DNA of 64,000 nucleotides from Candidatus Poseidoniia archaeon (GCA_030748895.1 JASMLC010000005.1:35517-99516); one strand, 5' to 3'. Shown: positions 15,462 to 64,000, counted from the first letter of the stretch. Numbers and translations are program-made. The notes: generated by a model not told the origin, from the sequence alone.

Positions 15462-15496
15462 GCAGAGTGCAAGTTTTAACGCTTGCGCGGGAGCAC

Positions 15497-15504: not shown

Positions 15505-15528
15505 CCAGCGCCTGCTCGACGGCAGGCA

Positions 15529-15603
15529 GCCCCGTGGTGTAGCGGTCCAGCATGCAGGCCTTTGGAGCCTGTGACCCAGGTTCGAATCCGGGCGGGGCTA
15601 CCA
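15529..15603 (+). tRNA. tRNA-Gln (anticodon TTG), CCA encoded
   Basis: Acceptor AGCCCCG/CGGGGCT; anticodon arm CAGGC-CTTTGGA-GCCTG; T loop GGTTCGAATCC. The 5' half is near-identical to known archaeal tRNA-Gln. One A:G mismatch in the T stem. Confidence 0.75.
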
Positions 15604-43430: not shown

Positions 43431-43601
43431 AGGTTATTAACCATCCACACAATACTTTCTCTTGAGCAAGCACTCACGCTTCCCTACGCTACGCAGCGTT
43501 TCGTCCAGCTGGGCTGGCGAGTCATTCGTATTGAAGCGCCGCGAAAATCAGAACATGAAAACTCTGGTGATCCAAATCGCTATATTGGAGAAGATACAGG
43601 A

Positions 43602-47167: not shown

Positions 47168-47200
47168 ACATGAACTAACGTCACCCCTGATACCAAGATT

Positions 47201-47698
47201 ATGGAAGAAAACTCCTTTAATATATCATTCACAATCAACGGCAGTTACTGTGAAAAGCAGATTCCTGCATCTCTCCTCCTCATCAATTTGATTCGAGATG
47301 AGTTGAAATTGAAAGGTACTAAACCTGGATGCATGGAAGGGGAGTGTGGCGCCTGTACTGTACTAGTCGATGGAAAGGCGATTAACTCCTGCCTCTTTCC
47401 AGCCATTAACATTACTGGCAGGGAGGTCGTAACAATCGAAGGAATACCAGATGGTGAGAAAACGCTTGATTCGGTACAGGAATCACTAATTCAGCATGGA
47501 GCGGTACAATGCGGTTTCTGCACGCCAGGGATGGTGATGGCCATAAAGTCATTTGTCGATCAATGCAAGATGGAAGGGCATCTCCCAACGAGAGAGGAGA
47601 TTGAGGATTCATTGTCGGGGAATATCTGTCGCTGTACAGGCTACACCAAGATTATCGATGCTTCTGAAGCACTTTTCGATGAATCCTCAGGAACTTGA
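47201..47698 (+). CDS. (2Fe-2S)-binding small subunit of a second XDH/CODH/HcrC-family enzyme
   Basis: CMEGECGACT, CGFCTPG, CRCTGY; 165 aa. Confidence 0.85.
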   Translation: MEENSFNISFTINGSYCEKQIPASLLLINLIRDELKLKGTKPGCMEGECGACTVLVDGKAINSCLFPAINITGREVVTIEGIPDGEKTLDSVQESLIQHGAVQCGFCTPGMVMAIKSFVDQCKMEGHLPTREEIEDSLSGNICRCTGYTKIIDASEALFDESSGT

Positions 47699-50001
47699 TG
47701 AATGTGGAAATGAGTACAATCGGCAAACCAACGCCAAAATTGGATGCTGCTGACCGCGTGAGCGGCAAGGCAGTTTATGGTCCAGACATCGAAATTTCCG
47801 GGATGCTGCATGGTGCTATTTTACGGACTGAATACCCTTCAGCCAGAATAGATTCAATCGATGTGTCACAAGCATTGTCCCTGCCAGGAGTCGAGTGTGT
47901 TATTACTGCAAGTGACATTGATACGAATAACCTCGGTTACCGGAAGGATCATCCCGTCATGAAAGGTGATGAAGTCAATTGTATCAGGGATGAAGTTGCT
48001 GCCGTGGCTGCTGTTACGAAGGAATTGGCTATGGAGGCGCTCAAACTGATTAAAGTAGAATATTCACCACGAAAGGGTATTTTCAATCCGTTCGATGCAC
48101 TGAAAACCACAGCCCCGCAGATTAACCGATTCAACCACGACAAAGAAGGTAATCCGAATATTTCGGAGTCTTTTCATTACGAACACGGCGATATGCAAAA
48201 ACAGAAGGAGAAAAGCACTTGTGTGGTTAGCAGACAGTATGTCCTGCCGAAGGTAGCACATAGTTGCATGGCAACAAGCAACGTTACGGCCAACTATTCT
48301 GATGTGGATGGCAGACTGACGATGTACAGTTCAACCCAGGTCCCCTTCCTCTATCAACGAGAGATTGCACATGCTCTTAAGATGAAACCGTCAAAAATTC
48401 GGGTCATTCAACCTATTATTGGTGGCGGATTTGGAAGTAAACTCGATCTTCACCCATTCGAACCAATCTGTGCTTTACTTTCAATGAAGACGGGGCGGCC
48501 TGTCCAAATTCTATACGACAGGAAAGAGGAATTCATCGCCTCTGCCATCAGACAGTCCATGATAATCGACCTCACCACTGGTATGGACGAGAACGGGAAT
48601 TTTACTTTCAGGGAAGTGAAAATCACAAAGGACAATGGTGCCTACACTTCATGGGGTGCAAGGAGCTCTTTCGTGATGATGCAAACGTTTTCATCACTCT
48701 ACAAAATTCCAGCTTGTACCTATAATGCAGATGCTGTCTACACGAACAATGTCTTTGCTGGCTCCTTTCGGGGATTCGGCAATCCTCAAGCTACTTTCGC
48801 CCTCGAGCGGAACATAGATCTGATGGCTGATAAACTGGGCATTGATAGAGCAGAAATACGCCTACTCAATGCCAATCTTCCTGGAGAAATTACTGGTCAG
48901 GAACTAGTGTACGGTACGTGTGGGCATAAACAAGCTCTAGAATCTGTAGTTAAAAACAGCGATTACAATACGAAGAAAAACGGAACGACCTGTTCCAATC
49001 GCTACAGGCGCGGAATTGGTTTTGCCTCCATGCTCCATGTGGGTGGCGGTGCCAAAATATATCCTTCTGACGGATGCGGTACCACTCTCAAGCTTGATAC
49101 CTATGGCTATTTGACTATCATATCAGGCTCCAGCGAAATCGGACAAGGTTCAGAAACCATATTGGCCATGTTTGCCCGGGAAGAACTGGGGATTGATCTG
49201 GAGAAAATTCGGATTATCAACAGCGATACTGACGTAAAGCCATGGGACGTAGGCGTTCACGCTTCGCGTACAGCTTTCGTGGCTGGTAATTCACTTCTTG
49301 GAGCGCTGAAGAAACTAAAGCATAAGCTTTCGTCAAAAGCCTCCCAGCTACTTGACACGGTCCCAGAAGATTTGATTTATATTGATGGAAATATCCAATC
49401 TGACAAGACAGGTGACTCATACAAAATTGACAAAGTCGTGAGGGAGATCCACTTCAAGACACCACATGAACTGTGTGAAGTTTCATATTTCTATGAGCCT
49501 TCCAGTGAATTTCAGGACAAGCAATACAAGGGAAATGTATCGGGGTGTTACGCATTTGCATCCCAAGCGGTAGAGGTCCAAGTAGACACTCTCACTGGAA
49601 AAGTTGAGGTTCTGGACGTCTATATGGCACAGGATGTAGGAAAAGTACTGAACCCACTGGGGCTTGAAGGACAGATTGAGGGGGGAGTTGCAATGGGGCT
49701 GGGTTACGCCCTGAGCGAAGAACTGTTTTCTGATGAGGGATATCTGCTAAATCCGACATTTCATGATTATAAGTTGCCCACTACGCGTGACATCCCAAGG
49801 ATTCATTTTTATCCTGTGGAAACTGACGAACCGTCGGGACCGTATGGTGCGAAAGGAGTGGCAGAAGCGCCATTAGTCCCTACAGCGGCAGCCGTTACGA
49901 ATGCTGTATGTCACGCCCTAGGTGTTGAAATCAACACCATTCCGCTTACTCCGGAGAGAGTCCTTAGGGCTCTTGACGGGAAACAACAGATTAACAATTG
50001 A
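47695..50001 (+). CDS. molybdopterin-binding large subunit (second copy)
   Basis: 768 aa; paralog of 36668-38944. Confidence 0.8.
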   Translation: MMNVEMSTIGKPTPKLDAADRVSGKAVYGPDIEISGMLHGAILRTEYPSARIDSIDVSQALSLPGVECVITASDIDTNNLGYRKDHPVMKGDEVNCIRDEVAAVAAVTKELAMEALKLIKVEYSPRKGIFNPFDALKTTAPQINRFNHDKEGNPNISESFHYEHGDMQKQKEKSTCVVSRQYVLPKVAHSCMATSNVTANYSDVDGRLTMYSSTQVPFLYQREIAHALKMKPSKIRVIQPIIGGGFGSKLDLHPFEPICALLSMKTGRPVQILYDRKEEFIASAIRQSMIIDLTTGMDENGNFTFREVKITKDNGAYTSWGARSSFVMMQTFSSLYKIPACTYNADAVYTNNVFAGSFRGFGNPQATFALERNIDLMADKLGIDRAEIRLLNANLPGEITGQELVYGTCGHKQALESVVKNSDYNTKKNGTTCSNRYRRGIGFASMLHVGGGAKIYPSDGCGTTLKLDTYGYLTIISGSSEIGQGSETILAMFAREELGIDLEKIRIINSDTDVKPWDVGVHASRTAFVAGNSLLGALKKLKHKLSSKASQLLDTVPEDLIYIDGNIQSDKTGDSYKIDKVVREIHFKTPHELCEVSYFYEPSSEFQDKQYKGNVSGCYAFASQAVEVQVDTLTGKVEVLDVYMAQDVGKVLNPLGLEGQIEGGVAMGLGYALSEELFSDEGYLLNPTFHDYKLPTTRDIPRIHFYPVETDEPSGPYGAKGVAEAPLVPTAAAVTNAVCHALGVEINTIPLTPERVLRALDGKQQINN

Positions 50002-50002
50002 A

Positions 50003-50872
50003 ATGGGAATCGAGATAGAAACACCCGAAACGACCGAAGACCTCCTACAGATAATCAACCGGAATATCAACGGTAATTTCAGATTCGGCGCAGGATATAC
50101 TGACCTAGTTCTTGAGTTGAAGCAGGAACCACAAAAAGACTTGCTGATAATCAATTTGGCCCAGATGGATGACAGTGATTTTACAACAATTCAATTCGTA
50201 GATGAAGGCATCAGAATTGGAGCTTTAACAACTATTGCTGAAATCATGACGGACAAGAAAGTTCGCCATCGGGCACCTGTTGTGGTTCAGGCAGCGGAAA
50301 ACTTTGCCTCACGCCAGATTCGAGAGGTTGCTACTGTGGGCGGAAACATTTGCACAGCTTCTCCTGCTGGAGACATGTCATGTGCTTTGACAGCTCTGGA
50401 AGCAAGCTGCGAGATACTGAATGTAGAGGGAGATGTGCGTTCCGTCCCAATTGCAGAATTTTTTTCGGGTGTCAAACAGACTGTCTTGAGGGCAGAAGAA
50501 GTTTTGCGGAGTGTGGTTTTCCCCTTGAACAGAACTGAGGACATCGTGCACTCTCGTTTCGTCAAGGTTGGTGTCAGAAACGCGATGGAGATAGCTATCG
50601 TATCTCTTGCGTTCCATGTACTGGCGAACAATGATGGAAATGTCACATCGTCAGGTGTGGCCATTGGCTCTGTGGCCCCGACAATCAAGTTTGCAAGATC
50701 TGCCTGCGATTTCTTAGCAGGCAAAAATCATTCCCGTTTAACAAACAATGAACGTGAAAAATTTGCCACTATGGTGCTCGATTGTGCCAGTCCAATCACG
50801 GATCTGCGCGCCTCGGAATGGTACCGCCGAGAAGTACTTTGGAATATCTGCAGGGACATCTTTAATGATTGA
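50003..50872 (+). CDS. FAD-binding medium subunit (CoxM/XdhB-like), no FeS insertion
   Basis: Start taken at MGIEIETP immediately after the large-subunit stop. FAD-binding GxxGGN region. Confidence 0.7.
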   Translation: MGIEIETPETTEDLLQIINRNINGNFRFGAGYTDLVLELKQEPQKDLLIINLAQMDDSDFTTIQFVDEGIRIGALTTIAEIMTDKKVRHRAPVVVQAAENFASRQIREVATVGGNICTASPAGDMSCALTALEASCEILNVEGDVRSVPIAEFFSGVKQTVLRAEEVLRSVVFPLNRTEDIVHSRFVKVGVRNAMEIAIVSLAFHVLANNDGNVTSSGVAIGSVAPTIKFARSACDFLAGKNHSRLTNNEREKFATMVLDCASPITDLRASEWYRREVLWNICRDIFND

Positions 50873-50956
50873 ATTGAAAGAGAATCTATACACAAGCTCA
50901 AAGACACCACTTAGTAGAGTGTGGTATGTGTATGACGTGAAATTTTTTGGTGAACC

Positions 50957-52975
50957 ATGAGTTACCGTTACAAAACCTTATCCATATCTAAGCTTTCGAT
51001 AATCGGTGCTGGTCAGATAGGGCCTGATATATGCCTGCACTTTTCGAAAGTGTTTTCGAAAAGCAGTGTTGAACTGATCCTGGTTGATATATCTAATGAC
51101 GCACTTTCGAATGCAAAGACCAGAATAGAAAAGAAAATCCAAAGAGGTGTTGAAAGCGGTGCGTTCAGACCAGCAATGGCTGAAACAATGAGGAACAGTA
51201 TATCGTATACCACAGATTATCAGGCAATCGCAGGTTCGGCAGTAGTTCTGGAAGCTGCCACAGAGGACGAAAAAATAAAAAAAATAATTTTCAGCCAAGT
51301 CGAAGAGATTTGTGGAGAAAAATGCCTGTTCCTGTCAAATTCGTCTCACATGCGCCCGGAAGTAATTTTTCAGAATATTGTCGAAAAAGAACGCTGCCTT
51401 GTCACTCACTACTTTTTCCCAGCTGAACGCAACCCTGTTGTAGAAATAGTACCTGGTGCAGACACTAGCGAAACAATTACCACTTCGCTTATGGAGTTCT
51501 ATGAAGCTATCGGAAAGGTTCCCATCAGGGTGAAAAGTTCCTACGGTTACGCTATCGACCCTATTTTTGAAGGACTTTGCCAGATGGCTATTTTATGCCT
51601 TGAAAAGGGATATGGCACCGTAAAGGAGATTGATGCTGCCGCCTGCAAGGCACTGGGACTGGGTGTGGGCCCCTTCACTGCGTTGACCCTGACGGGGGGA
51701 AACCCCATCACTGACCATGGTCTGGATGAAATGAACCATGAACTCATGCCTTGGTTTAAGTCACCCAAGACACTGCAAGAAGAGGTCAGAAATGGTACTA
51801 GTTGGGAGATTGCCCAACGGGGCGAGGAAGTGAACATTGCCTCGGAAAAGGAGGCCATTTTGGAAAAACAATTTCTCGGCGCTTATTTTGCACTCTCTTC
51901 CTTCATTATAGATAAGGGAATCAGCAATGTTAATGATCTTGATATGGCGTGTGAGATAGCGTTGGTAATGAAAGCTCCTTTTACTCTAATGAATAAACTC
52001 GGTCTCAACAATGTTTACCAGCTTGTTGAAGATTTTTGCAATGAGCAGGATGGATTTTCCATTCCAGCATCGCTCGAAGCTGCGCGGGCAGCAGGAAAAT
52101 GGGAGATTTCCCGAATAGTAAAAAAACTGGAAGGTCGGGTCGCAGTCTTTACTATCCGGCGTCCGAAAGTTTTGAACGCACTTAATCTTGGTGTAATTGC
52201 TGAACTGGAGAAAGGTTTGCTTGAAGCTGAAAAAGATACGTCGGTTATCGGTTCGGTCATCACTGGTTTTGGTGTAAAGGCATTTGTTTCGGGAGCAGAT
52301 ATCAACATGCTTGCCTCTCTGAAGACCGCTGATCAAGGATACGAAAATGCACGCCGCTTTCAGACTGTATTCAGTCGAATTCAGGCTCTTGGAAAACCTG
52401 TTGTTTGTGCCATGAACGGATTTGCTTTCGGCGGCGGAAATGAACTGGCCATGTCCTGTAGTGCCCGAATATGTCGGAAAGGATTAGCTGTTCTAGTCAG
52501 ACAGCCAGAGGTTAATCTTGGTTTCATCCCTGGTGCTGGTGCTACACAGAGACTGCCACGGCTGGTGGGGGTCGACATAGCAGCAGAAATATTGCGAACA
52601 GGCCGCACTATTTCCTCTAAGGAAGCAACCGAAATTGGCTTAGTCCACAAGGAAGTGGAAAGTGACTTAATCGAAGCTGCAATTTTTCTGGTGGGACAAC
52701 TGGCAGATGGGGCTCTGGAACTCGCACCTATAGCTGAACACCCTCTCAGCCAAAGTGGCGATATTCCCGACTTGGACATTGGCCATCTGAGCCAGAAGAT
52801 AGACTCCCTAATCACTGAGGCGATCTATGGAGGGAGCAAAATGACCTTGGATGCAGGACTCGACTTCGAAGCGCAGCTTTTCGGGCAGTGTCTCGAAACC
52901 AAAGATATGAAAATTGGTTTAGCAAATTTCCTGACTAACGGCCCGAGAGCAAAAGCAAAATTTGTGCACAAGTAG
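50957..52975 (+). CDS. bifunctional 3-hydroxyacyl-CoA dehydrogenase (N-terminal) / enoyl-CoA hydratase (C-terminal)
   Basis: IIGAGQIG Rossmann plus 3HCDH C-domain, then a crotonase fold (AMNGFAFGGGNELAMSC); 672 aa. Confidence 0.8.
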   Translation: MSYRYKTLSISKLSIIGAGQIGPDICLHFSKVFSKSSVELILVDISNDALSNAKTRIEKKIQRGVESGAFRPAMAETMRNSISYTTDYQAIAGSAVVLEAATEDEKIKKIIFSQVEEICGEKCLFLSNSSHMRPEVIFQNIVEKERCLVTHYFFPAERNPVVEIVPGADTSETITTSLMEFYEAIGKVPIRVKSSYGYAIDPIFEGLCQMAILCLEKGYGTVKEIDAAACKALGLGVGPFTALTLTGGNPITDHGLDEMNHELMPWFKSPKTLQEEVRNGTSWEIAQRGEEVNIASEKEAILEKQFLGAYFALSSFIIDKGISNVNDLDMACEIALVMKAPFTLMNKLGLNNVYQLVEDFCNEQDGFSIPASLEAARAAGKWEISRIVKKLEGRVAVFTIRRPKVLNALNLGVIAELEKGLLEAEKDTSVIGSVITGFGVKAFVSGADINMLASLKTADQGYENARRFQTVFSRIQALGKPVVCAMNGFAFGGGNELAMSCSARICRKGLAVLVRQPEVNLGFIPGAGATQRLPRLVGVDIAAEILRTGRTISSKEATEIGLVHKEVESDLIEAAIFLVGQLADGALELAPIAEHPLSQSGDIPDLDIGHLSQKIDSLITEAIYGGSKMTLDAGLDFEAQLFGQCLETKDMKIGLANFLTNGPRAKAKFVHK

Positions 52976-53004
52976 AGAAGGCAACACTTACTTTTAGAAA
53001 CTAC

Positions 53005-55122
53005 ATGAGATACAAACTTGGTATAGATGTGGGCGGAACATTCACGGATTTCTTCCTTGTTTCCGCTAAAGGTGAAATGGTAATACACAAGACACTGTCT
53101 ACACCGGAGGATTCCTCTATTGGTTTCATTACAGGGATAAAGGAATTAGGAAAAAAGCTCCACAAAGATGCCTCAGAATTTATCTCGAGCATCGATACCA
53201 TAGTACATGGAACTACGGTTGCCACTAATGCACTCCTTACGGCTCAGGGGGCGAAAACTGCCCTGATAACGACACTCGGTATGCGAGATGCCCTAGAAAT
53301 GCGACGCGGCATCCGGGAAGAGCAGTACAACAACCACTATCGAAATGTCACACCACTTGTTCCAAGATATCTCAGGCTAGTAGTAAATGAACGAATTGAT
53401 TCCGAAGGTAACGTACAGACTCCATTAAACAAATCCGATTTGGACTCACTAATTGAGAGGTTGAAAGATGAACAAGTAGAGGCTGTTGCAGTCTGTTTCA
53501 TGAATTCCTACATGAACGAAATGCATGAGAGACAGGCTACAGAGTATCTGAGGGACCGCTTAGATAGTGTATTCATTACCGGCTCTTATGAAGTGCTACC
53601 ATCCATCCGATTCTATGAGCGGTTGAGCACCACGGTTGTGAATGCTTGCATCGGTGTACTGGTTGACAAATATCTCCAGTCCCTTCTAGAGAAACTGAAA
53701 GATTTAAAGTTCGGAGGGAGTCTCCTGATAATGCAATCCAATGGAGGTGTAGTGACCCCGGAAGTTGCACGAAAAATACCAGCAGTGACGGTCTTGTCTG
53801 GTCCAGCTGCCGCTCCAGTCGCAGGAGCATATTACGCAGGGATTTTAGGATACAATAATTGCATAACCATTGATATGGGTGGGACCAGTTTCGATGCCAG
53901 TATGGTGGTGGAGAGGGAATGTGTAACCAGTACAGATGGAGAAATCAATCGCTATAGGGTCGCCCTCCCAACCCTTGACATTGTAACCATTGGGGCTGGA
54001 GGCGGCAGCATCGGTTGGATAAACCGTGGCGGCTTGCTACAGATGGGGCCCCAGAGCGCCGGTTCGCGACCTGGCCCTGTGTGTTACAACCAAGGTGGTG
54101 AAGAACTGACTTGTACTGATGCTGACCTGATCCTTGGTTATCTTGATCCAGATTTCTTTGCTGGGGGAAAATACAAGTTGGATGCTGAAAAAGCCCTCGA
54201 ACAAACAGGCGTAGAACTTGCCCAGCCCCTTAATCTCTCTACTGTCGAGACCGCTGCAGGCATGTATCGCGTCATCAACACGAATATGGCCCAAGGTGTT
54301 CGCCAAGTCTCTGTAGAGAGAGGATATGATCCAAGGGAATTCTTGATGATTGTGGCTGGAGGAGCTGGCCCCATTCATGCTGGAGAAATCTGTCGTGAGT
54401 TGGAAATACCGATGTTCGTGGTGCCTGATGTTGCACCGATCTTCTGTGCTACCGGCATGCTGCTAGGAGACCTGAAATACGATTTTGTCAGGTCGTACAT
54501 TACCAGGCTTTCTGAAATCGACAAAGATTCTTTTCTCGAGGTCCTCGGAGAACTGATAGCTGAGTGCGAACTTACCATGTCAAAAGAAGGGATTGCCAAA
54601 GAATGCGTTCAACTACAGCCTTCATTGGATTTGCGCTATGTGGGACAGTATCATGAAGTGCCACTTCCTACGAGCATGGATGATATAGCATCATTCAATT
54701 TGGAGAGAATCCAACGTGAATTTCACAAGGAACACAACCGCCAGTTTGGATATTCACTTGAACAGGAAGGGACTGAACTGGAGATTATCAACCTCCGTCT
54801 CAGGGCAATTGGCGTCATCGAAAAGCCAAATCTTCCTGCCGAAATTGATAGTTCAACGCCGGTTCGAAATCCCAATACTGCACTGAAAGGCAGACGAAGA
54901 GCTTACGTGCCGGAAATAGATGAGCTGAAAGAAGTTCCGGTTTACGATGGAGATAAGCTAACGGAAAGATACACTATCGAAGGTCCTGCAATTATCGAGC
55001 AGGTCAATACTACGATTTTTCTGGGAAATTCCTACGATTGTGATAGTGGAATTGGGGGTTCGTTCATTGTATACAACCGAGATAAATATCCAGAGGGTTT
55101 CAGACTTGAGCCAACCAACTAA
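53005..55122 (+). CDS. hydantoinase A / oxoprolinase / acetone-carboxylase-beta family ATPase
   Basis: MRYKLGIDVGGTFTDF N-terminus, ASKHA fold repeats; 705 aa. Confidence 0.8.
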   Translation: MRYKLGIDVGGTFTDFFLVSAKGEMVIHKTLSTPEDSSIGFITGIKELGKKLHKDASEFISSIDTIVHGTTVATNALLTAQGAKTALITTLGMRDALEMRRGIREEQYNNHYRNVTPLVPRYLRLVVNERIDSEGNVQTPLNKSDLDSLIERLKDEQVEAVAVCFMNSYMNEMHERQATEYLRDRLDSVFITGSYEVLPSIRFYERLSTTVVNACIGVLVDKYLQSLLEKLKDLKFGGSLLIMQSNGGVVTPEVARKIPAVTVLSGPAAAPVAGAYYAGILGYNNCITIDMGGTSFDASMVVERECVTSTDGEINRYRVALPTLDIVTIGAGGGSIGWINRGGLLQMGPQSAGSRPGPVCYNQGGEELTCTDADLILGYLDPDFFAGGKYKLDAEKALEQTGVELAQPLNLSTVETAAGMYRVINTNMAQGVRQVSVERGYDPREFLMIVAGGAGPIHAGEICRELEIPMFVVPDVAPIFCATGMLLGDLKYDFVRSYITRLSEIDKDSFLEVLGELIAECELTMSKEGIAKECVQLQPSLDLRYVGQYHEVPLPTSMDDIASFNLERIQREFHKEHNRQFGYSLEQEGTELEIINLRLRAIGVIEKPNLPAEIDSSTPVRNPNTALKGRRRAYVPEIDELKEVPVYDGDKLTERYTIEGPAIIEQVNTTIFLGNSYDCDSGIGGSFIVYNRDKYPEGFRLEPTN

Positions 55123-55133
55123 AAGAGGGTGCA

Positions 55134-56819
55134 ATGGTAGATATTGACAGAATTCTTCTCTCGATTTTTCAACGGGCATTCAAATCCATTACGGATGAAA
55201 TGAGTATTTCACTGACCAAGACTACTCGCTCTCCAATCCTCTGCGAAGCAAAGGATTTCGTGACTGGACTTTATGACGCCGAAGGGCGGATGCTGGAGCA
55301 GACTGAAAATCTGCCGATTCTCTCATTTTCTTTGGGACCCGTTTGCAGAGTCATTCTAGAACAGTATGGTGAAGATATACATCCAGGAGATGTCATCATA
55401 CACAACGATGTGTTTTCCATGGGTAATCAGAACAACGACGTCGCTGTCTTCAAGCCCATTTTTTACGATGAGACCTTAATTGGCTGGGCTGCCGCGAAGG
55501 GGCACCAGGCAGACATTGGAGGGGCGGTGCAGGGAGGGTACAACCCAAACGCCACGGAAGTGTGGCAAGAAGCAATCCGAATCCCGGCTGTCAAAATCTA
55601 TGAAAAAGGGCAGCTGAGGGAGGATGTCTGGAATCTGATTTTTGCAAATATTCGGCTAGACATAGTTCAGGAAGACATTAAAGCCCAAGTTGGTGCTTGT
55701 ACACTGGGTGAGAGGAGGTTAAAAGCGCTGGCAGCAAAGTACGGTGTAGGGTGCTATGAAGCTCACAAGGAGAAACTTTTCAGTTCTACGGAAAAAATGA
55801 TGCGGAGTGAAATAGCCTCCATCCCCAATGGTATTTATGAGGGTGAGAGCATAGTATTCTATGACGGAAAGCATGAGGGAACTCAATTTACCGTGCGCGC
55901 AAAAATCACGGTTGAGGATGAAACTATCTGCTTTGATTTCTCCAAATCATCTCCCCAGACAAAAGGTTTCGTGAACGGCACCTACACATCTACATGCTCA
56001 GCCATCACGCTTACATTCCTCCAGATGATTAACCCAGATATTCCACATAATGAAGGAATGATAAAACCACTGCGTTATGTTGTGCCTGAAGGCATAATCC
56101 TGAACGCTGCCTATCCTGCAGCCACTACATTCGGAAATCATCTATGCCCACAAGTAGCCGATTCCATTTTCAAGGCCCTAAGTCTGGCAATTCCAGAACG
56201 CGTCACTGCGGGGTGGAATCATCTTTTGTGTTCGCTTTTTACAGGTGTTCACCCTGGAACAGACGAAAAATATGTAGACATCTGCTTCCTCGGCATGAAG
56301 GGTGGTTCAGGGGCATTGCATCAGTCAGACGGCTACGATCATATTGGTATGATAGACGCCTCAGGAGGTGTGCTTGATCAGGACTATGAAATGTTCGAGC
56401 GGCAAACACCGCATAAATTGATGCGGCATGAGTATCTAAAAGATTCCGCCGGAGCGGGAAAGTGGCGAGGAGGTCTGGGCGTGATAACTGAAATTGAGTT
56501 GGGTGGTAATAACACCACCATGGTAGTTTTCGGGGATGGCGACATAAAACCACCCTACGGCCTATTTGGAGGCAAGGAGAGTATCCTGAACAGAATTTGC
56601 CTCACTTACGCCGATGGGAAAGAAGTCGTACCCATGAGTAAGGATATGATTGAGGGAATACCGGCTGGTACAGTCTACCATCAGGTCGCCAGTGGTGGTG
56701 GCGGATATGGAAAACCTGAGGAGAGAAGACGTGAAAAAGTGTTGAGAGACGTGCGGGACGAGGTAGTCTCGCAGAAGCAGGCTGAAGAGATATATAAGGT
56801 CAAATCTGATGCGGACTGA
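55134..56819 (+). CDS. hydantoinase B / oxoprolinase family subunit
   Basis: 561 aa; HyuB family conserved core. Confidence 0.75.
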   Translation: MVDIDRILLSIFQRAFKSITDEMSISLTKTTRSPILCEAKDFVTGLYDAEGRMLEQTENLPILSFSLGPVCRVILEQYGEDIHPGDVIIHNDVFSMGNQNNDVAVFKPIFYDETLIGWAAAKGHQADIGGAVQGGYNPNATEVWQEAIRIPAVKIYEKGQLREDVWNLIFANIRLDIVQEDIKAQVGACTLGERRLKALAAKYGVGCYEAHKEKLFSSTEKMMRSEIASIPNGIYEGESIVFYDGKHEGTQFTVRAKITVEDETICFDFSKSSPQTKGFVNGTYTSTCSAITLTFLQMINPDIPHNEGMIKPLRYVVPEGIILNAAYPAATTFGNHLCPQVADSIFKALSLAIPERVTAGWNHLLCSLFTGVHPGTDEKYVDICFLGMKGGSGALHQSDGYDHIGMIDASGGVLDQDYEMFERQTPHKLMRHEYLKDSAGAGKWRGGLGVITEIELGGNNTTMVVFGDGDIKPPYGLFGGKESILNRICLTYADGKEVVPMSKDMIEGIPAGTVYHQVASGGGGYGKPEERRREKVLRDVRDEVVSQKQAEEIYKVKSDAD

Positions 56820-56825
56820 AAGCAT

Positions 56826-57323
56826 ATGAACTACACACTCGAACAGAGATTCAAGGCACTCTGTCAGATTAGTAGAGCGACTTTCTTCGAATGGAGAGAA
56901 ACCTTCATGAAAATGTATCCCGAAAGGTCGCCCATGGATGCTGTACTGCAATACTGGGAGATTGCAGGACACGATACGGCCAAAGCCTATCTTCGAAAAG
57001 TGGAAAGGGACAAGCCTGTCTCACCCCAGATTGCCCAGATGATAGTGGATAGTTCCCTCTCCATGGGTGAAAGTGCACGCGTCGTTGACAATGATGACGA
57101 GGTCAGCGTTATTCATGATGTGTGCCCGTGGCATGACTGGCACGTCAAGTTTGATGCTGTGGAGGAAGATCAGCCTGGCTGCGACTGCTGGTTCAAGACA
57201 ATTACAACTGATTTCAACCGTGAACTGGGTACTGATATAGAGGTGGAAACGGTAAGTTCAATACCAGCCGGCGATGAGCGTTGTGAAAGAATTTTCAGGG
57301 AGAAGGATTCGGATCGTGAGTAG
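56826..57323 (+). CDS. small Cys/His-containing protein, candidate third (gamma-like) subunit of the hydantoinase-type enzyme
   Basis: 165 aa, immediately downstream of HyuB; CPWHDWH and CDCW motifs. Confidence 0.35.
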   Translation: MNYTLEQRFKALCQISRATFFEWRETFMKMYPERSPMDAVLQYWEIAGHDTAKAYLRKVERDKPVSPQIAQMIVDSSLSMGESARVVDNDDEVSVIHDVCPWHDWHVKFDAVEEDQPGCDCWFKTITTDFNRELGTDIEVETVSSIPAGDERCERIFREKDSDRE

Positions 57324-58260
57324 CTTTTTCCGCCCAGCCACAGTCAAGGAGGCCCTTTCTCTGGCATCAGACCGGCCGGGAAAGTGTGTATATTTTGGGG
57401 GTGGAACCGACCTGCTGATTTACCGGAAACATAAACTGGTAAATGAGGAAACTATCATTGACCTGAGCGAACTCGTGGATACCTCTGCGTTTAAGGTTGA
57501 CAGAAATTCGCTAAGACTTGGAGCTGCCATTACTCTGGATGACATCGCTACTTGCTCAGAGATTAAGAATCATTTTCCGATACTAATTGAAGCTGCTAAG
57601 TCTGTGGCAACACCAGTAATCAGAAAAACTGCTACCCTTGGCGGCAATTTGTTGGTTAACAACCGTTGCACATTCTACAACCAGTCACAGGAATGGCGGG
57701 ATGCAATTGGCTCCTGTATAAGGGATGTAGGAGATATATGCCTAGTAACCGGAGGAAAGGGTAAGTGCTTTTCCCGAAATGTGTCAGATACGGCGCCGGC
57801 TCTGATTGCCCTTGGTGCCACAGTTAAGATTCAGTCCCAGAAGGGGAAAAAACAAATCAACCTGAAAGATGTTTATGTTCCGGATGGGATTAATTTCCAC
57901 CAGCATCTGGGTGACAATGCAATCCTGACTGATATCCAGGTTTCAGAAAAGCCGGCAAGCTGGTGGTTCCGGAAACTCCGCTTACGGAAAACACTGGACT
58001 TCACTTCTCTGACAGTCGCTGCGACAGTCAATAGTGGCGGCGTTGCCCGGGTCTGTCTGAATGGAGTGTCCATGTCACCTGTTCTCATCGAGGAATCTCT
58101 CGTAGACCTGACATTGGAAAGTCTCGTCAAGGCAGCTCGGAAGAATTGTAAGACAGTTAACAATGACCTCATGCCATTGAAATACCGCCGACAGATGATT
58201 GACCTGTTTCTTCGGGACTGGTGGAAAAGCATCGATCAGAGCCTTCCCAAAAACAAATGA
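57313..58260 (+). CDS. FAD-binding medium subunit with a 4-Cys inserted loop (HcrB-like; FAD + putative [4Fe-4S])
   Basis: Start probably GTG at 57313 (MSSFFRPATVKEAL..). After the GGN motif there is an insertion, absent from the 50003 paralog, with spacing C-x15-C-x7-C-x8-C. Confidence 0.65.
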   Translation: MVSSFFRPATVKEALSLASDRPGKCVYFGGGTDLLIYRKHKLVNEETIIDLSELVDTSAFKVDRNSLRLGAAITLDDIATCSEIKNHFPILIEAAKSVATPVIRKTATLGGNLLVNNRCTFYNQSQEWRDAIGSCIRDVGDICLVTGGKGKCFSRNVSDTAPALIALGATVKIQSQKGKKQINLKDVYVPDGINFHQHLGDNAILTDIQVSEKPASWWFRKLRLRKTLDFTSLTVAATVNSGGVARVCLNGVSMSPVLIEESLVDLTLESLVKAARKNCKTVNNDLMPLKYRRQMIDLFLRDWWKSIDQSLPKNK

Positions 58261-59384
58261 ACGAACTCGAACAGATAATAAAGGCTTACCAACAGTGCCG
58301 CGATTCTGGTAAATCTTCTGTTTTGGCAACGTTGGTAAAAGTGCAGGGCTCTCATTACCGGAAACCGGGTGCCCAAGCCTTGATAGTCGAATCTGGGGAA
58401 TTTGTGGGCAACATCAGTGGTGGTTGCCTGGAAACAGACTTGCTACATCATGCGGAAAAAGCACTCTCGACTGGAGAAATATTACTGATGAAATATGATA
58501 CTTCGTCACCTGAGGACATAGTATTCGGACTTGGGATTGGTTGTGGCGGCGAAGTTGATATTTTGCTCGAGCCAGTATCTGTTAATAAATCTCATTTTTT
58601 CCTAGAACATATTGGCCGTCTGATTGAACAGGACTCCTCGGTCAGGTCGGTTGTTATTCACAGGTCCGGGAACAAAAAAGAGGTGGGAAACAGACTATTT
58701 CTGGCTGAGGACAATCGATTGATTACGGATATAGTCTCCCAGACTACCATTGAGACAATTCAGTCCTTGGTAAGAAAAATGCCGGTCGGTTCTAACAGTG
58801 CGAACCAGATTTCACTCACGGAGTTGGGCGAGATGGAAATTTTTTCCAATGTCATTTGCCCACCCATTAACTTGCTGGTAATTGGTGCTGGGAGCGATGC
58901 ACTGCCACTAGTATCCTTTGCGAAACGCCTCGGTTGGCGAGTTACCGTTACAGACCATCGTCCTGCATACCTTACCGAAGAGAAATTTCCCGACGCAGAC
59001 AACCTAGTTCAGGCTGCATCTGAGAACTTGGTCAATAGCGTAAATCTCTCCAAAGTCGATGCTGCAGTAATCCTTACGCACAACTATCTCCGTGACGCCA
59101 AATTGTTGAAAATACTGCTACCGGTGGGTTTGGATTATCTTGGGCTTCTTGGTACAAAAATCCGCACTGATAACCTCCTGAAAGAAGTTGAATTGGCAGA
59201 AGTAATGAGTATTTCAGACGCAAGGAAAAGACTCCACTCCCCGGTTGGACTGGATATCGGCAGCGAAACTCCGGCTGAAATAGCACTATCAATAGTATCG
59301 GAGATACAGGCAATCCTGAGCAAGAGTGCAGGAGACGTCCTGAAAAGTCCAGAGATAATGGAACTCAATGTCGCCAGATTCTGA
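58257..59384 (+). CDS. XdhC/CoxI family molybdenum-hydroxylase maturation protein
   Basis: XdhC_CoxI N-domain and Rossmann-like C-domain (LLVIGAGSDALPL); ATGA overlap with upstream gene. Confidence 0.75.
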   Translation: MNELEQIIKAYQQCRDSGKSSVLATLVKVQGSHYRKPGAQALIVESGEFVGNISGGCLETDLLHHAEKALSTGEILLMKYDTSSPEDIVFGLGIGCGGEVDILLEPVSVNKSHFFLEHIGRLIEQDSSVRSVVIHRSGNKKEVGNRLFLAEDNRLITDIVSQTTIETIQSLVRKMPVGSNSANQISLTELGEMEIFSNVICPPINLLVIGAGSDALPLVSFAKRLGWRVTVTDHRPAYLTEEKFPDADNLVQAASENLVNSVNLSKVDAAVILTHNYLRDAKLLKILLPVGLDYLGLLGTKIRTDNLLKEVELAEVMSISDARKRLHSPVGLDIGSETPAEIALSIVSEIQAILSKSAGDVLKSPEIMELNVARF

Positions 59385-59988
59385 CGGCAGACTGGATATA
59401 TGTGCCATCATACTGGCAGCAGGCTCTTCCGAACGGCTAGGAGTTCCAAAACAGTTACTTCCCTATAGAGATACAACTCTTCTTGGTCACACTATCCGGT
59501 GTGTCATGGCCTCAAAATGCAGTGAAGTTATTGTAGTGCTGGGCGCCCATGCTCCATCCATCCACGGCAGTATTTTTGAGCTCCCAGTACATCCGGTACA
59601 GAATAAATATTGGAGGTCCGGGATAGCTTCCTCTATCCGAACAGGACTGGAGGAAATGGAAGTAATTAACAATAATACACGCGCAGCCCTGTTTCTGGTC
59701 TGCGACCAGCCCTTTCTAACAGCGAAAGTCATTGACTCGCTCATTGATCTGTTCCTATCTGGGTATACGATTACCGCTAGCGATTATGACGGAATCTTGG
59801 GTGTTCCAGCCCTCTTTGAAAAACAATATTTCCCCGAGCTAAAAATGCTGAGTAATGATTCTGGAGCGAAAAAAATCCTACATAATCGCGCGGAGAAGAT
59901 CGGGGCAGTCCTTTTCCCTCAGGGTGGGATTGACGTGGACAGACCCGGTGACCTACCGGATAATCTGGAATCAAGTCATACCTCGTGA
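59368..59988 (+). CDS. MobA-like NTP transferase; molybdenum cofactor cytidylyl/guanylyl-transferase (MocA/MobA)
   Basis: ILAAGSSERLG N-terminal motif; 206 aa; last gene of the island. Confidence 0.7.
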   Translation: MSPDSDGRLDICAIILAAGSSERLGVPKQLLPYRDTTLLGHTIRCVMASKCSEVIVVLGAHAPSIHGSIFELPVHPVQNKYWRSGIASSIRTGLEEMEVINNNTRAALFLVCDQPFLTAKVIDSLIDLFLSGYTITASDYDGILGVPALFEKQYFPELKMLSNDSGAKKILHNRAEKIGAVLFPQGGIDVDRPGDLPDNLESSHTS

Positions 59989-60178
59989 TACTGTTTTGAG
60001 TATAGTGACTAACAAGTTGTCTTGTGACATATCAACCATCTTCCCTGGGTCTAATATAAAGAAAGTTCATAAATTAGTTTGTGAATAAATATAGTTTTTT
60101 CACAGAAAAGATTGCGCTTCACCACCGGCGGTCCAACTCATCCAGTGAATGCACCTCGACCTTTCCATCCATGATTAA

Positions 60179-61060
60179 GGCTATGCAACAGACCCGAACA
60201 AGTGGCTGGTCCTGGGTGGCCACTACGACGCCACCATCAGCAGTGACTCAGGCGCCTACGACAACGCCGTCGGCACCGCCACCGTGCTCGAGCTGGCGCG
60301 CTACTTCACACAGGAGGTAGCGGCGCAGCCGGAAGTCTCGCTGGTCTTCGGCGCGTGGGACTCGGAAGAGGAGGGCGGGCAGGGCGCGCAGCTGTTCGTC
60401 GAGTCGGCCCGCGGCAACGCGACCGTGCTGGCGAACCTGAATTTCGACATGTTCGGGCTCTCGTACCCGGTCCCGAACCGCGCCAGCCTCTCGCCGCTCT
60501 GCGATGAGGAATTTTTCAAGCTCTACCTCTACACCTCGCCAGTCGAGGACTTCTCCGGCTACGCCGACTACGAGTACGACAACCAGACTCGCGCCAACTT
60601 CTCGATGCTGCGCAAAGCCCTGGAGCAGGTCGCCTACGACTATCTGGAATTGCCGCCCGAATGGGTGCTCGCCATCGATGACACCGAGACCAACTCAGAC
60701 CAGGCCGCATTCATCCGCGTCGGCATCCCCGCCATCTGGTTCCGCGGCATGCACGAGTACGCCTGGCAGGAGGACGACGGCTGCGAGCAGACCTTCAAGC
60801 ACTTCTCGACCGACCGGCTCGAATCGCTCGAGCTCATCGCCGGCTCGCACGCCAACCTGCTGGCGGGATTCCAGACCGGCCTCGATATTGCGTCGGGGCT
60901 GGTAACAGAGCTGGCGTACGCGGACGCGCAGCCACCGGCTGCCGGCGACGACAGGGGCAGCGCCGGCCGGACAGTGCTGGCGCTGCTCGTTATCGCCGTC
61001 GCGGTCGCCGGAGTGGCGGTGCTGGTGCGCTGGCGGCAGGGGCGTCAGGCCAGCCCGTAA
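60179..61060 (+). pseudogene. 5'-truncated M28-family Zn aminopeptidase (C-terminal ~294 aa only) with C-terminal TM anchor
   Basis: Reading back from the annotated ORF, the frame gives GYATDPNKWLVLGGHYDATISSDSGAYDNAVGTATVLELARYF (M28 HxD / DN Zn-ligand motifs), then hits a stop at 60176-60178 exactly where GC content changes. No N-terminal region remains. Confidence 0.65.
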
Positions 61061-62535
61061 AGCGCCCCGAACTTCGCTTTCAGGTAACGCACGAAAGCCT
61101 CAGCCCCGGGCTCCGCGCCGCTGGCGCGCTGCACCAGCTCCTCCGGCTCCCAGCGGCTGCCGTGCTGGTGGATGTGGCTGCGCATCCATTCCAGCAGCGG
61201 CGCGGTCTCTCCACGCGATATCTGCTGCGGCAGGTCGGGCAGGTCACGCAGCGTGGCGTCCCACAGCTGCGCCGCGTAGAGATTGCCAAGGGTGTAGGTC
61301 GGGAAGTAGCCAATGGCGCCCATTGACCAGTGGATGTCCTGCAGGACGCCCTGCGCGTCGTTCGGGGGCGTGATACCGAGGTATTTCTCCATGCGCGAGT
61401 TCCAGAACTGCGGCAGGTCGCCTACCGGGACTTCGCCGTTGACCAGCGCCTTCTCGACCTCGTAGCGCAGCATGATGTGCAGGTTGTAGGTCGCCTCGTC
61501 GGCCTCGACCCGAATCAGCGACGGGTGGACGCGGTTCACCGCACGGTGGATGGTTTCCACATCGAGGTCGCCGACGTGCGGAAACGTCTCGCGGAAGTCA
61601 GGCAGCCAGTGCTCCCAGAACTCGCGGCTGCGGCCGACCAGGTTCTCCCACAGCCGTGACTGCGATTCATGCACTCCGAGCGACACCGCTTTGCCGAGCG
61701 GGGTGCCCTCGTGCTCCGCCAGCAGCCCCTGCTCGTAGAGTCCGTGGCCGGTCTCGTGCATCACGCCGTAGAGGCAGCCGAAGGGGAACGACTCGTCGTA
61801 GCGTGTCGTGAAGCGCACGTCGCGCGGGCCGGCGCCGGAGCAGAAGGGGTGCGTCGATGTATCCATGCGGCCGGCGTCGAAATCGAAGCCGATGGACGCC
61901 GCGACGCGCAGCGAAAACTCGCGCTGCCCCGCCTCGGGGAACGGCCCGCGCTCCATGAACGACATATCGGGCTGGTCGCAGCGGCCGATGGCCTTCACCA
62001 GCGGCACGATTTCCTCGCGCAGCCCGGCGAAGAGTGGGTCGAGCTGCGCGACCGTCATCCCCTGCTCGTAGTTGTCGAGCAGCGCGTCGTAGATGTTGTC
62101 GTCGTAGCCGTAGTGCTCCGCCGCCCGGCATTGCAGCTCGACCATCTTCTCGAGGGCAGGCTGGAACTTCGCGAAATCGTCTTCGGCGCGCGCCTCTTGC
62201 CATATTTGCAGCGCCAGCGACTTGTGCCGCGCGATTTCCTCGACCAGTTCGGCCGGCAGCTTCGTCGCCTTCTCCCAGGCGTGGCGCACCTCGCGCACGT
62301 TGGCCGCCTCTCCCTCGTCGAGCTCGGCGTCCGCGAGCTTCACGAGCAGCTCGCCCATCGCCGGATCGACCAGCCGCGCGTGCGCCAGCCCCGAGAGGAA
62401 CGCCAGCGACTCGGCACGCAGCTTCCCGCCCTTCGGCGGCATCATGGTTTCCTGGTCCCAGCCGAGCAGCCCGCCGATGCCCTCGATAGTCGAGAGCTCC
62501 TCCACGCGAGCGATGAAATCGTCGTAGACCGACAT
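61045..62535 (-). CDS. carboxypeptidase Taq (M32 family) metallopeptidase
   Basis: 496 aa; HETGHGLYEQG (HExxH) and GVHESQSRLWEN motifs characteristic of M32. Confidence 0.85.
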   Translation of the reverse strand: MSVYDDFIARVEELSTIEGIGGLLGWDQETMMPPKGGKLRAESLAFLSGLAHARLVDPAMGELLVKLADAELDEGEAANVREVRHAWEKATKLPAELVEEIARHKSLALQIWQEARAEDDFAKFQPALEKMVELQCRAAEHYGYDDNIYDALLDNYEQGMTVAQLDPLFAGLREEIVPLVKAIGRCDQPDMSFMERGPFPEAGQREFSLRVAASIGFDFDAGRMDTSTHPFCSGAGPRDVRFTTRYDESFPFGCLYGVMHETGHGLYEQGLLAEHEGTPLGKAVSLGVHESQSRLWENLVGRSREFWEHWLPDFRETFPHVGDLDVETIHRAVNRVHPSLIRVEADEATYNLHIMLRYEVEKALVNGEVPVGDLPQFWNSRMEKYLGITPPNDAQGVLQDIHWSMGAIGYFPTYTLGNLYAAQLWDATLRDLPDLPQQISRGETAPLLEWMRSHIHQHGSRWEPEELVQRASGAEPGAEAFVRYLKAKFGALYGLA

Positions 62536-62609
62536 GCTCCCGCTATTGGCCCGGAGATAAAGGGTTTGACGCGGGAAATCGTATTTGCGCCCGCGGCTAG
62601 TGGGGCGCG

Positions 62610-63995
62610 ATGCGGCAGTTGATTTTGCTGGCTACGCTATTGCTCTGGCTGGCGCCAGCTACGGCGGGCGAGCCGCCTGAGCAGGTGCATCTGGCGACGA
62701 ATGCCCTAGGCGACGGAATGGTTGTGCAGTGGGGCACCGCTGAAGCCACGACGCTGCTCTGCACCTCGTCCAGCGACATCGAATACGGCCTCGGACCGGA
62801 CAGCCTCAACCAGACCGCATCGGGTTCGTGGGAGATGTATGACTGGACCACCTGTATCCATACTGTCGAGCTGGCTGGCCTCGCTCCCAACAACACCTAC
62901 CACTACCGCGTCGGCGGCGACGGCGAGTGGAGCGACGTCGCCAGTTTCGTGACCGTGCCGCAGGGTAGCCGCCCGGTGCGTATCGGTGCCATCGCTGACC
63001 ATGGCATTTCCTCTGACGCCGAAGCGACAACGCAGAAAATGCGCGCCGCGAGCCTGGACCTAGTCATCCACGCCGGCGACATATCGTACGCTAACGACGT
63101 CGGCTCGGGGGGCGTAGCGGACCAGTCCCTCTGGGATGACTACCAGAACCAGATCCAGCCGCTGGCGGCAACGGTGCCGCACATGTATGCTCCCGGCAAC
63201 CACGAGGATGAGGCCTACTACGAGTTCGACGCGTATGAAACGCGGTTCTACACGTCAGGGTCGAACCCGTTCTGGTACAGCTTCAGTTTCGAGGGGATTC
63301 ACTTTATATCTCTGTCGTCGGAGCACGACTACGGGCCCGGCAGCCAGCAGTACAACTGGCTAGAGAGCGAACTCCAAGAGGTGGACCGCCAAGCGACGCC
63401 GTGGCTGGTGGTGTTCGCGCACCGGCCGATGTACAGCTCCAACTCGGCACACGGCAGCGAAGTTGATTTCCGTGACGCGATGGAAGAACTGCTCTACGAT
63501 TACGGCGTCGACCTCGCCGTCTGGGGGCACGACCACAGCTACGAACGCAGCTACCCCGTCTTCCAGGAAGAACCTCTCTCAAATTCTACTTCCAGCGCGA
63601 CGGAACCGTACCGCAACCCCGGCGCACCCATCCATGTCGTCGTCGGCACCGGTGGCCGCTCGCTCTACGACGAGTTCGAAGAACCACAGCCCGCTTGGTC
63701 CGCCTACCGCGAGGCATCCTACGGTTACTCGGTCTTCGAAGTTACCCCGCAAGGCGAGCTGCACTTCAGCTTCATCCGCAACTCCGACGGCGCGGTCGCC
63801 GACCAGTTCTGGATTTCGAAGGCGTCGTCGCCCGGTCCGGGCAGCGGCGACGGGAACGGCGACAACATGACCGACCCCGACGGCAACGCCAGTGACTCGA
63901 AAGCGGGATGGCAGCAGAAACTCGAGGATCTGCCCGGCCCCGGCCTGCCGGTCACGCTCAGCGTGATGTCAATCGCCGCACGGCGGCGGCGCTGA
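62610..63995 (+). CDS. secreted purple-acid-phosphatase-like metallophosphoesterase with C-terminal anchor
   Basis: Signal peptide; GDISY, GNHE, VVFAHRP, GHDHSYER metallophos motifs; ends PGPGLPVTLSVMSIAARRRR. Confidence 0.8.
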   Translation: MRQLILLATLLLWLAPATAGEPPEQVHLATNALGDGMVVQWGTAEATTLLCTSSSDIEYGLGPDSLNQTASGSWEMYDWTTCIHTVELAGLAPNNTYHYRVGGDGEWSDVASFVTVPQGSRPVRIGAIADHGISSDAEATTQKMRAASLDLVIHAGDISYANDVGSGGVADQSLWDDYQNQIQPLAATVPHMYAPGNHEDEAYYEFDAYETRFYTSGSNPFWYSFSFEGIHFISLSSEHDYGPGSQQYNWLESELQEVDRQATPWLVVFAHRPMYSSNSAHGSEVDFRDAMEELLYDYGVDLAVWGHDHSYERSYPVFQEEPLSNSTSSATEPYRNPGAPIHVVVGTGGRSLYDEFEEPQPAWSAYREASYGYSVFEVTPQGELHFSFIRNSDGAVADQFWISKASSPGPGSGDGNGDNMTDPDGNASDSKAGWQQKLEDLPGPGLPVTLSVMSIAARRRR

Positions 63996-64000
63996 CTACT

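Follow-up and report, generated by a model that had tools for sequence, protein, structure and literature searches.

Three packed genes in a catabolic island

The window analysed here is a stretch of 64,000 nucleotides (nt) from a Candidatus Poseidoniia archaeon (GCA_030748895.1, JASMLC010000005.1:35517-99516), and the locus in question is a group of three genes on its plus strand. The first gene (53005-55122) encodes a HyuA/IaaC-like ATP-binding (kinase) subunit of 705 amino acids (aa) with the Pfam domains Hydant_A_N, Hydantoinase_A and Hydant_A_C (E 9e-89). After a spacer of 11 nt it is followed by the gene of a HyuB/IaaE-like hydrolytic subunit of 561 aa (55134-56819; Hydantoinase_B, E 8e-145), and after another 6 nt by a small gene (56826-57323). 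We assign its product of 165 aa to the V4R/ATC_hydrolase superfamily, on the basis of its predicted fold and of a weak full-length match to PF14196, with a putative metal site at H97, C100, C119 and C153. The 3′ end of the small open reading frame (ORF) is overlapped by the start of the following gene (57274..). ORF coordinates, Pfam domains and translation agree with the initial annotation, which had described a HyuA-like, a HyuB-like and a small 165-aa protein in this order, the last with the motifs CPWHDWH and CDCW; these lie at residues 100-106 and 119-122. It had also placed them in an aromatic-catabolism island, and such an island is indeed present as a low-GC block at about 15604-60130.

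To what type of enzyme do the two large subunits belong? The ranking of their scores against solved structures (PDB) and NCBIfam models places both in the hydrolase type, ahead of the Apc and Acx proteins. HyuA matches CapA with 476 bits, followed by N-methylhydantoinase (403), Apc gamma (360) and Acx beta (257), and for HyuB the order is CapB (309), N-methylhydantoinase (265), ApcD (102) and AcxA (63). Among the NCBIfam models, HyuA reaches 650 bits with caprolactamase alpha versus 376 with ApcC, and HyuB 403 bits with caprolactamase beta versus 105 with the acetophenone carboxylase subunit; both caprolactamase scores fall below the equivalog cutoff of 1000 bits. The length of HyuB is that of the Hyd type, versus 684 aa in ApcD and 776 aa in AcxA. 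The ATP-binding motifs of Hyd-branch HyuA proteins have been defined as DxGGTxTD, DxGGT and GxxPGP (PMC8453981), and all three are present in the HyuA translation as DVGGTFTD, DMGGT and (S)RPGP. According to the Apc structure paper, hydantoinase-type clusters are two-gene hydAB units with no gamma ortholog (PMC5214803); here HyuB directly follows HyuA, and the gene in third place bears no relationship to gamma.

The HyuB clade is abundant, the number of homologs in the database exceeding 4,000 at E<=1e-30, and among the matches listed the relatives are metagenomic only. A tblastn search against plasmids gave HyuB matches of at most 39% identity and no match to the small protein. In one high-GC MAG (metagenome-assembled genome) labelled 'Deltaproteobacteria', HyuA and HyuB form a single open frame of 1288 aa (L072, 6127-9993), which is either a fusion like the eukaryotic oxoprolinase or the result of a missed stop codon.

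The top solved-structure match to both window subunits is CapAB of Pseudomonas jessenii (PDB 6YRA), which has the ATP-binding motifs and three of the four metal ligands in common with them. The metal tetrad of CapB consists of Asp41, His99, Asp102 and His124. Full conservation is reported for all of them but Asp41, and the H99A variant is inactive (PMC8453981). In the ungapped alignment to CapB, the window HyuB has D41, Q99, D102 and H124. Thus three ligands are kept, and Gln stands in place of the metal-ligand His of the Hyd branch, as it does in the whole clade. The substrate would also differ, being probably a CoA-bound oxindole in the window and not caprolactam. Gln99 makes this a variant site and is not evidence against family membership. 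The motif GNQNND does not vary among 31 syntenic orthologs, which come from many phyla, nor among 120 homologs from the database. When HyuB homologs were clustered at 50% identity, 27 of the 150 best cluster representatives had Asp-Gln-Asp-His, the most distant of them with about 38% identity. HyuB paralogs with about 30% identity in some of the same loci retain His at position 99. Gln99 is also invariant in the alignment of proteobacterial-type iaa operons, and it marks the IaaE-type subfamily rather than this locus. A tie between Gln99 and the small protein was considered and rejected, since these proteobacterial-type operons do not have the small gene and the 27 cluster representatives carry Gln99 as well. 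The variants DSDH, DTDH and DNDH were met at the metal site of other HyuB proteins.

The small gene is a real gene, with homologs of about 161 aa and 43-85% identity in at least 129 genomes. In their alignment H97, C100, P101, W102, W105, the stretch E114-D120, C119, W122, C153 and R155 are invariant; H103 of the first motif and C121 of the second are variable, and there are no CxxC pairs. The window protein matches PF14196 (ATC_hydrolase) at E 0.003, its residues 15-156 covering positions 4-144 of the 145 in the model. In individual scans 17 of 18 family members matched PF14196 at E<=0.1 (best 1.3e-7) and 8 of 18 matched MetOD1, and most homologs bear a precomputed PF14196 assignment. The AlphaFold2 model has a pLDDT (predicted local distance difference test) of 91.7, and Foldseek related it to Bet3/TRAPPC3 (E 3.5e-6, template modelling score 0.57-0.59) and to H-NOX (E 9e-5). 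The only match of the family profile to PDB sequences was one spurious de novo design. The relationship of V4R with Bet3 has been published (PMC2253512), as has that of ATC_hydrolase with V4R and HNOB, to which three conserved Cys are common (PMC5847659). The model, the Foldseek matches and the alignment together give the small protein this H-NOX/V4R/Bet3-type fold and three conserved Cys. Judged by sequence and model, it is probably a divergent, stand-alone member of PF14196, within the ligand-binding superfamily that unites V4R, H-NOX, Bet3 and ATC_hydrolase, and it has a putative His-Cys3 site. The related V4R domains are described as zinc-binding, and by analogy with V4R sensor domains zinc would be the most likely metal here too.

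The likeness to AtcB of PF14196 (L-2-amino-thiazoline-4-carboxylate hydrolase) consists of the weak full-length match to the hidden Markov model (HMM), the conserved Cys cluster and the similar size. In contrast to it, the small protein forms its own subfamily, tied to neighbourhoods of iaa type and of OYE (Old Yellow Enzyme) type and lying below the gathering cutoff, and its gene context gives no reason to expect L-2-amino-thiazoline-4-carboxylate as substrate. By Foldseek its fold class is that of V4R proteins (BchJ and the sensor domains of MopR, PoxR and DmpR), H-NOX and Bet3/TRAPPC3. Three conserved Cys are found in V4R proteins too, but their spacing there is 26/9 versus 19/34 in the small protein, which has no AAA+ or DNA-binding domain.

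The anaerobic indoleacetate-type cluster

The anaerobic iaa pathway of Azoarcus and Aromatoleum proceeds from Mo-dependent hydroxylation to a 2-oxo compound, through lactam opening by a hydantoinase-like enzyme and CoA transfer, to a B12-dependent rearrangement giving (2-aminobenzyl)malonyl-CoA, oxidative decarboxylation by IaaF and beta-oxidation (PMC8360864; PMC8453981). All dehydrogenases of the IaaF subclass have GGG instead of the active-site motif YEG, and they are encoded in iaa clusters only (PMC8360864). A Mo-hydroxylase, an IaaL-type CoA-transferase, an IaaGH mutase and a GGG-type IaaF are all present in the window, and the same set is found in the loci L001-L173. Altogether, about 160 loci have this gene set around an orthologous HyuB with 65-92% identity, some of them in the published Aromatoleum order. 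Because the HyuA and HyuB genes sit in a full anaerobic iaa-type cluster, they most likely encode an IaaC/IaaE-type 2-oxoindoleacetyl-CoA gamma-lactamase. The type of the subunits themselves leads to the same reading, since both are of hydrolase type and Hyd clusters have no gamma component.

The genes of this cluster lie on the plus strand, as do all genes of the low-GC block, which are catabolic. The IaaF-type (benzylmalonyl-CoA) acyl-CoA dehydrogenase (ACAD; 38944-40071) has the Pfam ACAD domains and GGG in place of YEG, in the sequence FLLIGGGTSEIL. The B12-dependent, IaaG/IaaH-like mutase (41413-43430; MM_CoA_mutase, E 1e-190) is syntenic in related loci. It is divided into a small B12-binding subunit (41413-41793), an ORF of 126 aa whose position in L001 is held by a 126-aa PF02310 B12-binding gene, and a large subunit (41790-43430) with the MM_CoA_mutase domain. 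The class III, IaaL-like CoA-transferase follows (43449-44639; CoA_transf_3), in an open frame to which the L001 ortholog aligns from about 43449. Although homology in the open frame begins at about that position, there is no ATG, GTG or TTG between 43431 and the GTG at 43602; the true start probably lies upstream of this GTG at an unusual start codon, and truncation is the less probable explanation. The next gene encodes a fused IOR-like (indolepyruvate:ferredoxin oxidoreductase-like) enzyme of IorA and IorB type (44636-47167; NCBIfam IOR_alpha with 363 bits and IOR_beta; Pfam POR_N, TPP_enzyme_C and POR). The IaaI/J/K-like Mo-hydroxylase set of 2Fe-2S, MoCo and FAD subunits (47201-50872; Fer2_2, MoCoBD_1/2, FAD_binding_5, CO_deh_flav_C), a candidate indoleacetyl-CoA hydroxylase, is syntenic with HyuAB in related loci. 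A fused 3-hydroxyacyl-CoA dehydrogenase/enoyl-CoA hydratase (50957-52975; 3HCDH_N, ECH_1), which would serve 2-aminocinnamoyl-CoA beta-oxidation, lies immediately 5′ of HyuA, and in Marinimicrobia-type loci as well. After the small gene, an HcrB-like FAD subunit (4hydrxCoA_B, 200 bits), XdhC and MobA (NTP_transf_3) provide a Mo-enzyme subunit and cofactor maturation at 57274-59988, at the end of the island.

Further contents of the block are two subunit sets like benzoyl-CoA reductase (BCR)/2-hydroxyacyl-CoA dehydratase with BcrAD-type ATPases, the BCR-like reductases lying at 16-26 kb, together with an AMP-ligase, an aminotransferase, an AFOR (aldehyde:ferredoxin oxidoreductase), beta-oxidation enzymes, a thiolase and two Mo-hydroxylase sets. 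The second Mo-hydroxylase pair (36204-38944) is nearest to 4-hydroxybenzoyl-CoA reductase alpha (812 bits, cutoff 995) and has no adjacent FAD subunit, and the HcrB-like FAD subunit (57274-58260) lies 18 kb away, after the small gene. The two may together form an enzyme like 4-hydroxybenzoyl-CoA reductase.

The resemblance to the published iaa operons extends to protein size, with 707 and 564 aa for IaaC and IaaE of Aromatoleum aromaticum and Azoarcus evansii versus 705 and 561 aa in the window. In the Aromatoleum operon, as here, the lactamase genes are surrounded by genes of the Mo-hydroxylase, CoA-transferase, B12 mutase and GGG-type IaaF. Where proteobacterial-type operons follow the gene order published for Aromatoleum, their HyuB is 65-68% identical to that of the window. 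There are also differences. In the Aromatoleum operon a ligase gene adjoins the module, whereas the window has the IOR-like enzyme there. The window cluster also has the extra 165-aa V4R-like gene, absent from all 80 proteobacterial-type operons compared, and it belongs to an archaeal genome.

From this context we infer the substrate and the order of reactions, and we consider it probable that HyuAB and its neighbours phosphorylate the lactim of 2-oxoindoleacetyl-CoA, hydrolyse it at HyuB to (2-aminophenyl)succinyl-CoA and convert this product onward to 2-aminobenzoyl-CoA. The neighbouring Mo-hydroxylase would make 2-oxoindole-3-acetyl-CoA from indoleacetyl-CoA, and HyuA would spend ATP on phosphorylation of its lactim oxygen. 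The activated intermediate would then go to the HyuB metal site, where water would open the ring to give (2-aminophenyl)succinyl-CoA. The CoA-transferase, the B12 mutase, the GGG-type decarboxylating ACAD, the hydratase/dehydrogenase and the thiolase would carry this compound to 2-aminobenzoyl-CoA, which the BCR-like reductases would dearomatise. Tryptophan could be fed into the pathway by the aminotransferase, the IOR-like enzyme and the AFOR of the island. To our knowledge, ATP-dependent hydrolysis of 2-oxoindoleacetyl-CoA has only been predicted, for every member of the iaa-type lactamase.

Three points speak against this assignment. The substrate is deduced from gene context. Orthology to the Aromatoleum IaaC/IaaE is based on operon synteny and statements in the literature. 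The metal-site chemistry may differ, because Gln stands at a reportedly fully conserved His whose replacement by Ala inactivated CapB (PMC8453981). Two other explanations were weighed. HyuAB could open a different lactam or hydantoin, such as 5-oxoproline or another hydroxylated N-heterocycle, and merely neighbour the iaa genes. The island carries two Mo-hydroxylase sets and many further catabolic genes, which would suit such an activity. Nevertheless, the orthologous HyuB lies between iaa-specific genes (GGG-type ACAD, mutase and CoA-transferase) in all sampled lineages with enough flank, and we give this explanation only a slim chance.

The other explanation is that of the initial annotation, an Acx/Apc-like three-component ATP-dependent carboxylase of (aryl-)ketones or phenolic compounds with the third gene as its metal-binding gamma subunit. 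The order of two large genes and a small one does mimic acxABC (PMC5214803), the large subunits belong to the same superfamily, and the small protein is near Acx gamma in size and has conserved Cys and His. This likeness is superficial. The window HyuB is 120-215 aa shorter than ApcD and AcxA and only distantly similar to them, neither its bit scores nor its length groups it with Acx/Apc, and the gene context is of iaa type rather than of ketone catabolism. The gamma subunits of Apc and Acx are classical four-Cys zinc fingers (C22, C25, C75 and C78 in Apc gamma; PMC5214803). The small protein has three invariant Cys only and lacks the two CxxC pairs. An HMM search, as the initial annotation had suggested, gave no match to Acetone_carb_G (PF08882) at E<=10, and no NCBIfam model was matched. 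Because it has no gamma match and has a fold of the Bet3/H-NOX class, and gamma subunits are four-Cys zinc fingers, the small protein is not a gamma subunit. The carboxylase is thus largely refuted and hardly credible. The fallback given beside it, an amidase that opens a lactam or hydantoin and forms part of an aromatic-degradation island, is supported, since the genes lie in an anaerobic indoleacetate cluster, where a lactamase of IaaC/IaaE type is to be expected.

Distribution and possible roles of the small gene

From the genome scan that found relatives of the small gene in at least 129 genomes, 80 loci were examined in detail. The lineages include Marinimicrobia, Bacteroidota, Planctomycetota, Gemmatimonadota, Myxococcota, Acidobacteriota and KSB1, and the small gene lies mostly inside iaa-type clusters. 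Its direct upstream neighbour is an OYE-like flavoenzyme in 28 of the 80 loci, HyuB in 21 and a thiolase in 7. Directly downstream we found an IaaF-type ACAD in 20 loci and an IOR-like gene in 7. The synteny, which the initial annotation had named as a test, is of a mixed kind: the gene is kept in iaa-type clusters, but its adjacency to HyuB is not consistent. The OYE-like reductase combines Oxidored_FMN and Pyr_redox_2 domains in 650-720 aa (L024 7957-9921, L044 7507-9669 and 26 more loci among L005-L084). Seventeen of the 28 pairs of OYE-like and small genes lie in iaa-type clusters, and no OYE-like gene was found in the window island.

For comparison, 80 loci were collected through HyuB. 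These are proteobacterial-type operons with the order thiolase-ligase-HyuA-HyuB-ACAD-B12-mutase-FAD-FeS-MoCo-CoA-transferase. By tblastn and HMM search the small gene is absent from all 80. In 11 of them HyuB and ACAD are 300-1500 nt apart, and these gaps hold no small-gene homolog. The two sets differ in other genes as well. An IOR-like gene is present in 21 of 80 small-gene loci versus 1 of 80 HyuB-collected loci, and an OYE-like gene in 33 versus 4, while a ligase gene is present in 2 versus 39. Because an OYE-like gene precedes the small gene more often than HyuB does, and because all 80 proteobacterial-type operons are without it, the small protein is a lineage-specific accessory and not an obligate lactamase subunit. 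In six of the comparison loci (L114, L124, L135, L144, L148 and L150) the HyuB-ACAD gaps of 300-400 nt have a conserved GC-rich sequence in common, perhaps a repeat element, perhaps a structured RNA, which shows itself in the recurring pseudo-peptides GVSGVRFPEVKE and GDMEGIGHP.

The iaa operon of Pseudorhodoplanes (L091/L092, 19726-20286) encodes a stand-alone PF02830 V4R protein of 186 aa between the CoA-transferase and a periplasmic binding protein. This position, at the operon end after the CoA-transferase, is that of the small gene in many Phycisphaerae operons. In an hhalign comparison with the small-protein family the match was not significant (E 0.13), though the Cys columns align, and this V4R protein may correspond to the small protein in function.

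What could the small protein do? With less than an even chance, it takes a hitherto unrecognised part in the anaerobic breakdown of indoleacetate and tryptophan by anaerobes outside the Proteobacteria and by archaea of Marine Group II/III. Beside the Gln-site lactamase clade it would act as a carrier, a lactim/heterocycle hydrolase or a redox partner of IaaF-type and OYE-type flavoenzymes. Of these functions we tentatively prefer that of a zinc-stabilised, small-molecule-binding carrier for cyclisation-prone oxindole/2-aminophenyl CoA intermediates, which is possible but doubtful. Such a carrier would hold the re-lactamising intermediates and hand them between the enzymes of the pathway. Certain observations weigh on the other side. 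The window protein scores 18.8 bits with PF14196, below the Pfam gathering cutoff of 28.1; around six of the 28 pairs of OYE-like and small genes, at least 5 kb are free of iaa genes; and the invariant polar residues E82, E114, D115, Q116, D120 and R155 would also be in keeping with the active site of an enzyme or an interface between proteins.

These residues lead to an enzyme like ATC hydrolase, whose reaction is the opening of a five-membered heterocycle with a C=N bond. Here the substrate could be the oxindole/lactim or a quinolone-type side product, and the enzyme a metal-dependent ring hydrolase or a tautomerase/epimerase. The family relationship to PF14196, the unusually many invariant acidic and basic residues near the Cys/His site (EEDQPGCDxW, R155) and the tendency of the pathway intermediates to cyclise, expected on chemical grounds, are consistent with such a function; but the sub-threshold PF14196 score, a superfamily that is mainly ligand-binding (V4R, H-NOX, Bet3) and a His-Cys3 site more typical of structural metal sites make it unlikely. 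A true third structural subunit of the lactamase, not homologous to gamma and analogous to it only in a stabilising role, is distinctly unlikely. The gene does stand directly after HyuB in the 21 loci, with hardly any sequence between the two (a spacer of 6 nt in the window, an overlap of 4 nt in L001), and it keeps this position even where HyuAB is the D-H-D-H paralog of about 30% identity instead of the IaaE-type ortholog (L014 and L023). However, it follows an OYE-like reductase more often than HyuB and a thiolase in other loci, and orthologous Q99-type HyuAB occurs without it in all 80 proteobacterial-type operons. Moreover, where it stands behind HyuB it also precedes ACAD, and adjacency cannot single out HyuB as its partner. 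A redox carrier, with a His-Cys3-ligated Fe-S cluster serving the IaaF-type ACAD, the OYE-like reductase and the HcrB-like FAD subunit, would explain the frequent flavoprotein neighbours (OYE-like upstream in 28 loci, ACAD downstream in 20, a FAD subunit in the window), and the physiological electron acceptor of IaaF is not known (PMC8360864). It has only a small chance, as no Fe-S family signature was found in the small protein and its gene is missing from the proteobacterial iaa operons. The zinc-binding character of the related V4R domains also argues against it.

The island and its archaeal host

The island measures about 44.5 kb at about 45% GC and extends with its tRNA over 15528-60130, between flanks of 60-70% GC. 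Its left border is a tRNA-Gln(ttg) gene on the plus strand (15528-15603, ARAGORN), and GC content drops right after it. The flanks (1-15527 and 60131-64000) are archaeal, with an isoleucyl-tRNA synthetase and an M32 peptidase that fall in clusters named Candidatus Poseidoniia or Marine Group III euryarchaeote. The window proteins are carried by a MAG contig of 100 kb. An assembly chimera was rejected as the source of the island because both junctions recur in independent assemblies, the left one with 99.6-99.9% identity in three assemblies and the right one with 99.8% in one. No att-type direct repeat was found at the borders, which share no 10-mer or longer word, and no integrase was seen.

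The island is bacterial in composition, and outside its own lineage the nearest relatives of its proteins are bacterial (Marinimicrobia, 78-86%). Six marine-metagenome contigs (L085-L090, matching window positions 45106-59994) also carry the island; their nucleotide identity to it is 99.2-99.3%, and the match ends 6 nt beyond the stop codon of MobA. From locus position 14886 they continue into a different flank of 66% GC with MoaE, an AEC transporter and MoaE, the transporter being a gene of Marine Group II/III. Two right-flank arrangements thus exist, because these contigs leave the island into a different archaeal flank. Some MAGs hold island proteins at 90% identity or more under the labels Arenicellales, Nitrospinota or Marinimicrobia, which is probably the result of mis-binning. 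At the right border of the island in the window, an M28 peptidase ORF (60284-61060) begins at Pfam model position 40 and is apparently truncated at its 5′ end, and about 130 bp of sequence with 28% GC lie between this ORF and the island end.

In the papers searched we found no description of such an aromatic or indoleacetate island in planktonic Marine Group II/III archaea. If the archaeal host expresses the island, tryptophan, auxin and benzoyl-CoA-type aromatics could be degraded there via oxygen-sensitive enzymes. For the iaa-type lactamase, so far only predicted, the abundant and defined Asp-Gln-Asp-His clade offers biochemists a concrete object of study. The conserved small protein is of interest because the pathway to which it is attached needs an electron acceptor for IaaF and a way of handling labile aminophenyl intermediates.

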